Of a stretch of 7,042 nt of DNA, positions 2,626-3,772 are shown piece after piece. The stretch lies in IMG/VR virus record IMGVR_UViG_2636416140_000004; one strand, 5' to 3'. How positions within the stretch are numbered: the stretch's first letter is position 1; every line of letters starts with the position of its first letter. Origin of the DNA: a virus (Duplodnaviria; Heunggongvirae; Uroviricota; Caudoviricetes). Both the position numbers and the translations under genes were made by a program. The notes under the pieces are model-generated. The model saw only the letters and a program-made list of their open reading frames with translations. It did no database searches and was not told the DNA's origin.

Positions 2626-3291
2626 ATGACCACTATTACCAAAGAGCGACTGCAATGGCTGGCTAACATTTCTGGCCGCGATGATATTGACGATATAGAC
2701 GGCGGTGAAATTCGTGAACTGGCGCTTATCGCTCTGGCATCACTGGAAGCAGAGCCTGTAGCGGAATGCATTGTTGAAGATGGGGGCATGTGTATTGACG
2801 GGTTCGGTGAGTATGTGGGTCACTCGCTGCCTGATGGAATGCATGAGCTTTATGCTGCCCCGCGAATGCGACAACCTGATGGATGGAAAGCCGTAGCTGT
2901 AGCGTGGAAGGTGACGTTTACTCAAGTTGACCAGGAATCTAATACGTTCACTGCTATATATTTTGACAAAGCGGAAGTTGAGCGTTGGGTACGACTGCAT
3001 AAAGCATGTGATTTTCGGGCAGATATAACACCGCTTTACGCAGCGCCGGCAGTGCCGGTTGCAGTAAACGACGACATGGCTTACGCATTCCATCACGCAC
3101 TGTCAGATTCATCGCTTGGCTCTGATGAAATCGAAGAAATTAAAACCGGTTTGCGTGCTGCCTTTGCCAACGTCACTATCCAACCAGAGCCGATAGTGCC
3201 GGATGAAATCGGGCCAAACGATAGTAATACGTTTGATTATGTTGATGGCTGGAACGCCTGCCGCGCTGCCATGCTTAAGGGAGATAAATAA
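2626..3291 (+). CDS. Hypothetical prophage protein, strongly acidic, 221 aa
   Basis: ORF preceded by AAGGGG SD-like sequence; by hand count about 39 Asp/Glu against 18 Lys/Arg; LYAAP motif occurs twice; its stop overlaps the next start (TAATG). No family recognised. Confidence 0.6.
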   Translation: MTTITKERLQWLANISGRDDIDDIDGGEIRELALIALASLEAEPVAECIVEDGGMCIDGFGEYVGHSLPDGMHELYAAPRMRQPDGWKAVAVAWKVTFTQVDQESNTFTAIYFDKAEVERWVRLHKACDFRADITPLYAAPAVPVAVNDDMAYAFHHALSDSSLGSDEIEEIKTGLRAAFANVTIQPEPIVPDEIGPNDSNTFDYVDGWNACRAAMLKGDK

Positions 3292-3656
3292 TGATTAATC
3301 GAACCAAACTGGAGCACATTCTCGAATATGCCAGGCAGCAGAAATGTATTGGGCAACTTTGTAAAATTCCACTAGGAGATATGGTTGAAATCGTGGAAAT
3401 GGCCATGCGTAAGGCTGGCAACTCTCCGGTAACTCCGGCTGGCTGGATAAGCTGTAGTGATGCAGTTCCTGCTGAATATTGCGATGTGATTCTTCTCGAT
3501 GATCTCGGGAATGTATTCCCCGGTTCCTGGGATAAGGTTTTTTGCCCCACTCGTGGCGGGAATAAGATGGCTTTTGTGGACAAAGACGGCGTTGAAGTAG
3601 AGAGCTCAACTCACTGGATGCCGCTACCGGAACCACCGCAGGAGGTGAATCAATGA
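3291..3656 (+). CDS. Phage protein with DUF551-like C-terminal signature
   Basis: 121-aa ORF; C-terminal region (AGWISCSDAVPAEY ... THWMPLPEPP) resembles the DUF551 family pattern as I remember it; SD upstream; start overlaps the previous stop. Confidence 0.55.
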   Translation: MINRTKLEHILEYARQQKCIGQLCKIPLGDMVEIVEMAMRKAGNSPVTPAGWISCSDAVPAEYCDVILLDDLGNVFPGSWDKVFCPTRGGNKMAFVDKDGVEVESSTHWMPLPEPPQEVNQ

Positions 3657-3736
3657 CCTGGCCTGAGGCATTCACCACGGTAGGAATTGCGATGGCGGTG
3701 GCGCTGGTGGTGTATTCGATTTGCCGTTGGGGTTAA
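3653..3736 (+). CDS. Unlisted 27-aa hydrophobic micropeptide (MTWPEAFTTVGIAMAVALVVYSICRWG), probable single-pass membrane peptide
   Basis: ATG at 3653 overlaps the upstream TGA stop (ATGA); strong SD AGGAGG at 3638..3643, 9 nt upstream; hydrophobic core VGIAMAVALVVYSI; followed 6 bp later by a terminator. Below the ORF-track length cut-off. Confidence 0.5.
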   Translation: MTWPEAFTTVGIAMAVALVVYSICRWG

Positions 3737-3741
3737 CAAAC

Positions 3742-3772
3742 AAAAACCCCGGATTGATGGTCCGGGGTTTTT
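3742..3772 (+). terminator. Rho-independent terminator closing the three-gene cassette
   Basis: Stem CCCCGGA (3747..3753) / TCCGGGG (3761..3767), 7-nt loop, then TTTTT (3768..3772); preceded by an A-run, so possibly bidirectional. Confidence 0.8.

Follow-up and report, generated by a model that had tools for sequence, protein, structure and literature searches.

The window, by which is meant the whole 7,042-nucleotide stretch of tailed-phage DNA analyzed here (Caudoviricetes; IMG/VR record IMGVR_UViG_2636416140_000004), contains a gene for an acidic protein, a DUF551 gene and, at their distal end, an open reading frame (ORF) of only 27 codons. The locus raises the question of whether this small ORF is a gene and, if so, whether it functions together with the two genes upstream, as the first-pass annotation supposed when it described the three as a terminated cassette. 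The explanation favored here, to which we assign a probability of roughly 0.78, is that the ORF is a missed, mobile 27-codon gene whose product would form an inner-membrane helix acting on a host membrane protein. The features concerned are listed in Table 1.

Table 1. Features of the three-ORF array and its surroundings, with positions counted from the first letter of the window.
Feature	Position	Strand	Remarks
Acidic 221-aa gene	2626..3291	+	pI 4.39; first intact gene past the IS600 junction
DUF551 gene, 121 aa	3291..3656	+	PF04448; coupling partner just upstream of the micropeptide in this window
27-codon micropeptide gene, MTWPEAFTTVGIAMAVALVVYSICRWG	3653..3736	+	single-pass membrane product predicted
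Putative translational-coupling module	3638..3656	+	AGGAGG at 3640-3645 plus ATGA start/stop overlap
GC-rich hairpin with flanking A and T runs	3741..3773	.	shape of a bidirectional intrinsic terminator
hok/sok type I toxin-antitoxin locus	3942..4266	+	mok 4054-4266, hok 4111-4266
IS600-like insertion, left end approximate	1320..2587	-	IS3-family orfA 2221-2523, orfB 1367-2185

Reanalysis of the array bore out the structural description given in the first-pass annotation. The three linked ORFs are all present, with the overlaps TAATG (3289-3293) and ATGA (3653-3656), as are the canonical AGGAGG Shine-Dalgarno (SD) sequence of the smallest ORF, a strong hairpin behind it and a hydrophobic core that plausibly fits one transmembrane helix; the 27-codon ORF is also missing from the RefSeq/PGAP annotation in every record inspected. 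The SD sequence lies 7 nt 5′ of the ATG, within the last codons of the DUF551 gene, whose product ends in PQEVNQ. By itself, this signal is not significant within the window, where one AGGAGG-N4-9-ATG is found against 0.25 expected and at least one in 44 of 200 shuffles. As a 2-kb region of the window holds 34 ORFs of at least 20 aa, the window alone is insufficient to prove that the small ORF is real.

The 121-aa protein matches DUF551 over the entire profile (positions 1-68 of 68; 69.9 bits against a cutoff of 22; E = 3.4e-19), is labeled a DUF551 domain-containing protein by PGAP and belongs to phrog_924, a PHROG of unknown function; a sequence search found no relative with a solved structure. 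The 221-aa protein falls into no family of Pfam or NCBIfam, its PHROG matches are of unknown function, and it is a mosaic of sequence modules common to Ead/Ea22-like phage proteins. Its gene also starts with ATGA (2626-2629), a remnant of coupling to a gene since cut by the insertion element, whose IS3-family orfA/orfB pair we take to be that of IS600. The match to the intact prophage of E. coli FDAARGOS_944 starts at 2588, 38 nt 5′ of the 221-aa start, and the equivalent point in that prophage falls inside an HNH endonuclease gene. The coupling chain of the intact prophage is longer (DUF4014, HNH, 221 aa, DUF551), and the count of three genes is therefore an artefact of the IS600 cut. IS600 stands between the array and every phage gene and promoter upstream, and expression of the window copy is doubtful because its native upstream operon has been removed; this copy lies in an IS-riddled, Shigella-type prophage remnant in which expression from the native operon is unlikely.

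Comparison across genomes indicates that 3653-3736 is very probably a real protein-coding gene skipped by annotation pipelines. A degenerate DNA pattern, in which 21 bases were fixed and no stop was demanded, retrieved 139 copies, representing 52 unique DNA sequences and about 30 peptide variants with identity down to 59%; MTWPEAFTTVGIAMAVALVVYSICRWG is the most frequent of these variants. Exactly 27 codons precede the stop in 138 of the 139 copies, an internal stop occurs in none of the 52 unique sequences, and the ATGA start is present in all 139, with the proviso that the fixed bases inflate the apparent conservation at their codons. An SD-like core was found at -18 to -4 in 138 of the 139, in the form of GGAGG, AGGAG or GGAGA in 132. 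Searching by tblastn, which is free of the pattern bias, gave near full-length matches in 91/93 phage records and 181/181 plasmid records. Among the codons left unconstrained by the pattern, entropy at the third position is 0.81 versus 0.48 and 0.39 at positions 1 and 2. The 27-codon frame, part of which the retrieval pattern constrains, has a dN/dS of 0.28 compared with 0.85-2.4 in four of the other five frames; the antisense frame with coinciding wobble positions also scores 0.28 and is open in 51 of the 52 sequences, so that the strand is not provable by dN/dS. The call of the predicted coding strand rests on the conserved ATG, SD and stop, on co-orientation with the neighboring genes and on the hydrophobic pattern. 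The first-pass annotation had proposed looking for conservation below DUF551 genes in other prophages, and regarded synonymous-site drift or stop codons as evidence against the ORF. The ORF passed this check: conservation was found, with no stops or frameshifts, and synonymous drift exceeds non-synonymous change. In GenBank, the exact peptide is deposited under no other name than hypothetical protein. Neither searchable full-text papers nor the supplements of an EHEC Sakai Ribo-seq study and of an Enterobacteriaceae microproteome survey contain the peptide strings, and a literature search found no Ribo-seq study of induced Stx prophages.

The gene is widespread. Matches by blastn were obtained in 1705 of 5426 complete E. 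coli genomes (about a third), at 1-7 places per genome and with roughly 3000 E. coli copies in all; many of the alignments end at the ATG and the stop of the 27-codon ORF, and matches often start 15-23 nt 5′ of the ATG. The gene also occurs in Stx phages, including 933W and VT2-Sakai, in non-mobilizable plasmids of about 90-100 kb from E. coli, Salmonella and Klebsiella, and in Av-05, a virulent, rV5-like phage of the Vequintavirinae; between its copy and that of the window there are about 14 synonymous and 5 non-synonymous differences. Five K-12 prophages (Rac, Qin, DLP12, CPS-53 and e14) gave only chance matches (E >= 0.13), and the gene was not found in them. Clustering the flanks of the 139 copies by sequence gave 17 groups upstream and 16 downstream, of which 38 combinations were observed. 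The majority-base fraction is 0.84-0.97 within the ORF, 0.40-0.48 from 10 nt beyond the stop and 0.47-0.71 upstream, and the edges of this island of conservation coincide with the boundaries of the 27-codon ORF. Protein tails ending in QEVNQ or VEDILR recur on unrelated proteins upstream of the micropeptide. Downstream, a DUF4222 gene starts 4 nt past the stop in some copies. These comparisons show coliphages to be shuffling the predicted gene on its own, as a self-contained module that comprises an embedded SD, the ATGA and the 27 codons, with the putative SD sitting in the tail of whichever gene is upstream. The module is usually located at the distal end of apparently coupled, mosaic accessory arrays (Ead/Ea22-like, DUF551, EaA), and such arrays are found between the replication genes and Q, as in the window, or just before xis-int.

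The predicted product has a conserved acidic N-terminal stub, M-T/S/N-W-P-E/D-A, then a stretch of about 19 hydrophobic residues and finally R-W-G, an end that is basic and aromatic. For the window peptide, the highest Kyte-Doolittle mean over 19 residues is 2.11 (residues 6-24), and the same residues give 1.85-2.63 across six representative divergent variants, all above the threshold of 1.6; in these variants, the N-side flank has a charge of -1 and the C-side flank one of +1 or +2. When variability was plotted on a helical wheel, it was not significantly biased to one side (moment 0.13, permutation p = 0.48), and the conserved residues thus do not point to a specific helix-packing face. Searches of the micropeptide against Pfam, NCBIfam, PHROGs and PADLOC gave no significant match; the sub-threshold ones were phrog_4612 (E = 0.019), KdpF (E = 0.024; TIGR02115, 14.7 bits against the NCBIfam cutoff of 26.85) and the DUF883_C glycine zipper (E = 0.042). 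An exhaustive phmmer search, for which the query was the micropeptide with a 35-aa in-frame extension, retrieved nothing beyond 25 close variants, forms with a frameshift or read-through and a single fusion, and no distant family. At the junction of the DUF551 gene and the micropeptide, no slippery site for programmed frameshifting was seen by eye.

From size, location and analogy only, we infer that the peptide would act within the membrane, where its most likely mode of action is to bind or perturb an inner-membrane protein of the host, in the manner of bacterial micropeptides of similar size. It would be a single inner-membrane helix with the N terminus out and the C terminus in, and may be synthesized in the course of lytic development, when ribosomes terminate and reinitiate on early, antiterminated transcripts of the phage. 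That a virulent phage carries the gene favors a function in lytic growth over one in the maintenance of lysogens. Enterobacteria possess several small single-pass inner-membrane regulators, namely KdpF (29 aa), PmrR (29 aa), MgtS (31 aa), CydX (37 aa) and AcrZ (49 aa), which act by packing against a larger membrane protein. The micropeptide appears to share with them the length class, one helix, very short tails and charges compatible with an N-out/C-in orientation; it differs in having no sequence relationship to them, in being phage-borne and in being coupled to accessory genes. These KdpF-type regulators offer the best functional analogy for the predicted 27-residue helix. Phages themselves encode small membrane proteins that block superinfection or DNA entry, such as T4 Imm, HK97 gp15 and lambda/Rac SieB, of which Imm is made early in lytic infection and the other two are expressed from the prophage. 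These proteins are, like the predicted product of the small gene, phage-encoded and membrane-located, although they are longer and unrelated in sequence, and the operons of the micropeptide are normally repressed in the lysogen, unlike prophage-expressed gp15 and SieB. An exclusion role of this kind would fit the occurrence in both temperate and virulent phages. A narrower proposal is that the peptide founds an uncharacterized family of phage membrane micropeptides, systematically overlooked by annotation, and specifically binds one of the inner-membrane proteins of the host (for example a transporter, a channel for DNA entry or a defense effector bound to the membrane) to promote phage takeover, exclusion or counter-defense. 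This proposal is tentative and on balance doubtful; if true, it would explain why the micropeptide stays intact amid shuffled surroundings.

With regard to its genomic neighborhood, the array belongs to the nin- or exo-xis-type early accessory region found in lambdoid phages and is probably not an autonomous insert. The exo-xis/nin genes of lambdoid and Stx phages (Ea22 variants, Orf60a/61/63, EaA) occupy the same neighborhood and undergo the same mosaic reassortment, and early transcription of this region has been reported (PMC10834534, PMC4195576). The upstream mosaics of Ead/Ea22-like and DUF551 sequence combine the same domains as have been reported in the Ea22 V2 variant. Those members of the group that have been described are soluble proteins, whereas the micropeptide is predicted to be transmembrane, and the exo-xis literature searched mentions neither a transmembrane micropeptide nor another membrane component.

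The alternative that survives best, although it is unlikely, is that the micropeptide is a membrane-damaging toxin like the type I toxins Hok, TisB, DinQ and ShoB, serving host shutdown or addiction. Its size and single hydrophobic helix are within the range of known type I toxins, and many phages carry hok/sok or RelE/ParD toxin-antitoxin loci beside it; hok/sok directly follows 39 copies, and hok is adjacent in 39 + 9 of the 131 copies with enough downstream sequence. Hok/Gef proteins, one of which is encoded next to the array, are likewise small, hydrophobic and frequent in prophage accessory regions. They differ from the micropeptide in length (about 50 versus 27 aa), and the micropeptide has neither a mok-type leader nor a Sok-type antisense RNA of its own. 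Translation of type I toxins is typically under heavy repression, whereas the micropeptide gene shows the reverse, a strong SD and tight coupling to the gene upstream. No match to Hok (PF01848), Hok/Gef or another toxin family was obtained at E <= 10. The flanks are minimally charged, there is no amphipathic or charged pore-lining pattern, and genomes tolerate the gene at up to 7 places. The sole Rfam match is sok (RF01794) at 3942-4116, with 118 bits against a gathering score of 59, in a separate downstream locus, none falling on the micropeptide block; in FDAARGOS_944, the annotation has a Hok/Gef family protein at the corresponding position. A possible membership of the small ORF in hok/sok was ruled out, as it lies about 290 nt 5′ of the sok model with the predicted terminator between them and occurs elsewhere without hok, 46 copies being followed by DUF4222-xis-int instead.

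Very unlikely is the proposal of the first-pass annotation that the acidic protein, the DUF551 protein and the micropeptide work together as one terminated moron cassette with a toxin, defense or anti-defense function. In its favor, the three ORFs are translationally coupled with a strong hairpin behind them, a DUF551-type tail lies just upstream in 74 of the 139 micropeptide copies, and toxin-antitoxin loci are, as described above, common neighbors. In addition, Av-05 gp123, which shares 45% identity overall with the 221-aa protein and is near-identical over the last ~60 residues, is encoded directly upstream of the micropeptide, and one lineage has the micropeptide as an in-frame fusion with an Ead/Ea22-like protein. 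On the other hand, no more than 2 of 5426 E. coli genomes contain the arrangement of DUF551 gene, micropeptide and hairpin (3291-3780) over at least 80% of its length; the micropeptide is found in combination with six or more unrelated C-terminal modules upstream and with 16 contexts downstream, and the intact prophage reveals the set of three genes as the product of the IS600 cut. The hairpin tells the same story of variation. It has a stability of -23 kcal/mol (z = -5.1; none of 200 shuffles is as stable) and a stem of CCCCGGA/TCCGGGG, 15 bp when A-U pairs are counted, followed by TTTTT on the + strand and TTTTTGTTTGTT on the - strand; a terminator scan also reports it, and with its stem-loop and T-tracts it has the shape of a predicted bidirectional intrinsic terminator. 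The same hairpin stands behind the micropeptide in a minority of contexts only, amounting to 9 + 2 copies, the sequence beyond differing; other contexts have other hairpins, and the two commonest have none. The predicted terminator is a separate element at a module boundary and no constant partner of the small gene. With upstream partners, downstream partners and terminator all varying, the notion of a three-gene functional cassette or moron is not supported, and the arrangement in the window is seen as one among many combinations. A moron with its own promoter did not hold up either, as a consensus scan found no sigma-70-like site on the + strand at 2400-4400. Of the other traits of a moron, the array has a predicted hairpin terminator downstream, but its GC content (0.43-0.54) is like that of its flanks. 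The defense or anti-defense role gained no support from PADLOC-DB, where the three proteins have no defense match; JetA alone was hit by the 221-aa protein (E = 0.015, 12 bits), and the DUF551 protein and the micropeptide gave nothing.

The last alternative, that the 84-nt block is conserved as a recombination linker, an RNA element or part of an antisense ORF, has in its favor a position exactly at the junctions between mosaic modules and the open, equally scoring antisense frame, but is highly improbable, given that variants diverge at synonymous sites up to a pS of 0.4-0.7 with length, start, stop and hydrophobicity fixed, that a DNA or RNA element would constrain every codon position, that an antisense ORF would need a start in each of 16 unrelated contexts downstream and an end in each of 17 upstream to yield, in the window, a polar His/Arg-rich string, and that the SD and ATGA are conserved on the + strand and no Rfam family matches.

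For this particular window, the finding is a modest one. Beyond it, what is very probably a gene of 1705 out of 5426 complete E. coli genomes and of Shiga toxin phages is missing from RefSeq, Pfam and NCBIfam, likely because its 84 nt fall below the length limits of gene callers. The locus provides an unusually clean case in which the reality of a micropeptide can be argued from mosaic phage genomes alone, since the same 27 codons survive in 38 surroundings. The micropeptide would add a predicted membrane component to the exo-xis/nin accessory regions, which influence the lysis-lysogeny decision and the induction of Stx prophages. Should it prove to have a target in the host, the peptide would offer a compact tool and might give access to conflicts between phage and host or among phages.

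All the sequence signals that the first-pass annotation had described around the 27-codon ORF are present in the window: the stop/start overlaps TAATG (3289-3293) and ATGA (3653-3656), an AGGAGG Shine-Dalgarno (SD) sequence 7 nt upstream of the small ATG, a hydrophobic product of 27 aa, and a strong downstream hairpin (-23 kcal/mol, z = -5.1), whose shape, with flanking A and T runs, resembles that of a bidirectional terminator. From the window alone, the ORF is unconvincing because the 2-kb region has 34 ORFs with a length of 20 aa or more, and the pattern AGGAGG-N4-9-ATG, observed once against 0.25 expected, also occurs in 44 of 200 shuffles. 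For comparison, copies were collected from IMG/VR and species-representative genomes with a degenerate pattern fixing 21 bases of the ORF, and together with annotated loci this gave 139 copies, representing 52 distinct DNA sequences and ~30 peptide variants. All but one (138/139) stop after codon 27, the stop codon not being included in the pattern, and an internal stop occurs in none of the 52 distinct sequences. By tblastn, which carries no pattern bias, the match is near full length in 91 of the 93 phage records and in all 181 plasmid records. Over the 14 codons left free by the pattern, the entropy at codon positions 1, 2 and 3 is 0.48, 0.39 and 0.81; the pooled pairwise dN/dS of the ORF is 0.28, and the window copy differs from that of the virulent phage Av-05 by ~14 synonymous and 5 non-synonymous changes. 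Among 38 distinct upstream/downstream combinations, the majority-base fraction is 0.84-0.97 within the ORF, 0.63 across the stop (a span of ten bases) and 0.40-0.48 further 3′, with 0.47-0.71 on the 5′ side, where it peaks at the ribosome-binding site. The probability that the small ORF is a real gene is put at ~0.85-0.9; in the window, the ORF is intact and has the sequence of the commonest allele.

An antisense frame with coincident third positions has the same dN/dS (0.28) and is open in 51 of the 52 sequences, so that codon statistics do not identify the strand; dN/dS alone cannot assign the strand of short, GC-rich hydrophobic ORFs. The sense strand is identified by the invariant ATG, the conserved SD and the fixed stop, the ATGA overlap being found in all 139 copies (139/139) and an SD-like core in 138 of the 139. 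Co-orientation with every neighbouring gene and the conserved hydrophobic character also point to the sense strand, and an antisense ORF would need its start and end to lie in unrelated flanks.

If the gene is real, its product is very probably a membrane peptide. The best 19-residue Kyte-Doolittle mean is 1.85-2.63, at residues 6-24, in six representative divergent variants. Among 33 variants, W3, G11 and W26 are invariant and P4, A6 and R25 nearly so, with no significant clustering of conserved positions on one helical face (p = 0.48). The hydrophobic segment is flanked by a charge of -1 on the N side and +1 or +2 on the C side, which under the established positive-inside rule suggests an N-out/C-in orientation; a 33-aa variant carries the C-terminal addition KNVRRD. 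KdpF, PmrR, MgtS, CydX and AcrZ are single-pass regulators of enterobacterial membrane complexes, 29-49 residues long, and would be the closest functional analogues. Membership of the KdpF family was rejected (14.7 bits vs a cutoff of 26.85). No curated family in Pfam, NCBIfam, PHROGs or PADLOC matches the micropeptide, and an exhaustive phmmer search against 1.84 billion representatives returned close variants only. The peptide strings matched no searchable paper and are absent from the supplements of the Sakai Ribo-seq study and of the Enterobacteriaceae microproteome survey; two exo-xis/Ea22 papers cover the soluble proteins encoded nearby and the DUF551 module but do not mention a membrane micropeptide. 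The product is rated as a new, uncharacterised phage small membrane protein.

The gene is widespread. When a 171-nt query containing the ORF and its flanks was used, 1705 of 5426 complete E. coli genomes gave matches, with one to seven sites per genome. Many of these alignments run from the ATG (query position 24) to the stop or a few nucleotides beyond (105-107). RefSeq/PGAP annotates nothing at this position in any record examined, and the phage records examined are likewise without annotation. The exact peptide is found in GenBank from other pipelines as a hypothetical or bacteriophage protein (e.g., AOM45384.1), and BAI35516.1 is an entry for a variant. In the protein collection, clustering at 90% identity places the 27-aa peptides under unrelated representatives, DUF551 proteins of 121-185 aa; this is apparently an artefact of clustering, by which representative-based searches miss the peptide.

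The SD of the small ORF is encoded by the final codons of the upstream gene, and unrelated upstream proteins share short SD-bearing tails (PQEVNQ, RQEVNQ, EQEVNR, VEDILR or RLEARQ before the stop), so that the mobile unit comprises the 27 codons and ~15-25 nt of the preceding tail. In all 139 copies the second residue is T, S or N; its codon must begin with A to give the TGA of the upstream gene. Upstream partners include mosaic Ead/Ea22-like, DUF551, EaA, dATP/dGTP pyrophosphohydrolase, methyltransferase and zinc-ribbon proteins; a DUF551-type tail precedes 74 of the 139 copies. The predicted conservation downstream of DUF551 genes is borne out. In the 131 copies with enough downstream sequence, the stop is followed by a DUF4222 gene starting 4 nt on and then xis-int (46 copies), by hok/sok directly (39), by another gene starting 2 nt on (10), or by the hairpin of the window and then hok/sok (9) or something else (2); several copies have other GC-rich hairpins, some with a convergent RelE/ParD pair beyond. 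The micropeptide gene is thus typically the terminal cistron of a coupled array and lies where other modules are often inserted; the terminator and hok are both inconstant partners. In Stx phages, the same locus (hokW/sokW) follows the micropeptide stop immediately, and the ~190-nt stretch with the hairpin that is present in the window is lacking. One compared locus (L147, 3001-3223; GCA_974481825.1) encodes the 33-aa variant and, 16 nt on, a second, unrelated 34-aa hydrophobic ORF (MSDDISLAMEGALAVVAVVGVYCLVVFLMDRLGN) with its own AAAGGAGGG site, both 5′ of hok, which looks like a pair of tandem micropeptide genes. In one lineage of six contigs from Logan assemblies (L144, 3001-3432; also L145 and L146), a 116-aa Ead/Ea22-like coiled-coil protein continues at its C terminus, in frame, into the 27 codons (junction PPLESNK-MSWPDAF), with GGAG retained 10 nt 5′ of the internal ATG. 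The fusion may be a tail-anchored protein, or may have arisen by accident with initiation at the internal site; it is at odds with the predicted topology and gives a weak hint of a functional link to the upstream proteins, too isolated to carry weight.

Features of the window
Feature	Position	Strand	Remark
LysR-type regulator gene	888-1370		truncated
IS3-family element	~1320-2587	-	taken to be IS600
Acidic 221-aa protein gene	2626-3291	+	
DUF551 protein gene	3291-3656	+	
27-codon ORF	3653-3736	+	
Hairpin	3741-3773		3′ of 27-codon ORF
hok/sok locus	3942-4266	+	
mok-like ORF	4054-4266		in hok/sok locus
HokD-like ORF	4111-4266		in hok/sok locus
Terminator-like hairpin	4334-4353		near hok/sok locus
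rem-like gene	4503-4754	+	phrog_1813, function not assigned by PHROGs
Insertion element	4757-5524		taken to be IS1-like
DUF1367, YbcO, Q-type DUF1133 antiterminator genes		+	in this order after the IS1-like element

The window comes from a Shigella-type chromosome and represents a lambdoid prophage in decay, with 99.7% identity to Shigella flexneri SFBU1023 over 2588-6931 and 98.8% identity to the intact prophage of E. coli FDAARGOS_944 (L001) over 2588-4756. The array lies between the replication genes and Q, in the nin-type region of a lambdoid phage. The IS600-like element joins chromosomal genes to phage DNA 38 nt 5′ of the 221-aa gene, at a point that lies inside an HNH endonuclease gene in the intact prophage. 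It truncates the LysR-type gene on one side and the phage HNH gene on the other, so that the left arm of the prophage is wholly missing and the window copy has lost its operon. The hok/sok locus is apparently intact (Rfam sok, 118 bits vs a gathering score of 59). The rem-like gene and its upstream spacer (4300-4800) are markedly AT-rich, with a GC content of 0.31-0.37 vs ~0.5 in other phage DNA; the IS1-like element separates the rem-like gene from DUF1367. At the right end (6928-7042), the alignment to the intact prophage skips ~1 kb at 6931 (7867 to 8877 in L001), leaving the DUF1133/Q-type gene without its 3′ end and deleting the ORF6N gene.

The proposal that the 221-aa gene, the DUF551 gene and the micropeptide gene form a terminated moron cassette is not borne out. 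The exact arrangement is rare (2 of 5426 E. coli genomes), and its three genes are what can be seen of a longer coupled array that IS600 has cut. The parts reassort independently (38 flank combinations), and autonomy is supported neither by a promoter-like site nor by base composition or a match to a defence family. What the comparison establishes is that the 27-codon ORF is conserved, translationally coupled and reassorts on its own, and that its hydrophobic core is conserved as well. The micropeptide would be translated by termination-reinitiation from early antiterminated transcripts, insert in the inner membrane N-out/C-in and act within the membrane on a host component. Modulation or inhibition of a host membrane protein is a tentative assignment, and exclusion of other phages or a block to DNA entry is unlikely. 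A membrane toxin is less likely again; type I toxins have a regulatory architecture that this gene lacks, and a relationship to Hok was rejected, with no Hok family match.

With the strict pattern, the small ORF was found only in Escherichia and Shigella, apart from two hits labelled Acinetobacter and Xanthomonas; these lie on very short contigs (369 and 431 nt) and are taken to be contamination. With tblastn, it was found in Stx1 and Stx2 phages (including 933W, VT2-Sakai, VT1-Sakai, BP-4795 and Min27), on ~180 plasmids that are non-mobilizable, 90-100 kb in size and taken to be phage-plasmids (E. coli 155, Salmonella 25, Klebsiella 1), and in large genomes of Escherichia phages, among them the virulent Vequintavirinae phage Av-05. 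It was not found in the K-12 prophages Rac, Qin, DLP12, CPS-53 and e14, which may be why K-12 small-protein surveys did not meet it. In Av-05 (L141; KM190144.1, 1121-2084), the micropeptide gene lies 3′ of a gene for a 220-aa homologue of the 221-aa protein, with no DUF551 gene between. This virulent phage bears a lambdoid-type accessory array, which implies that temperate and lytic coliphages exchange these modules. As the gene is present in a strictly lytic phage and lies in early operons that are repressed in lysogens, the micropeptide may serve lytic growth rather than lysogen maintenance.
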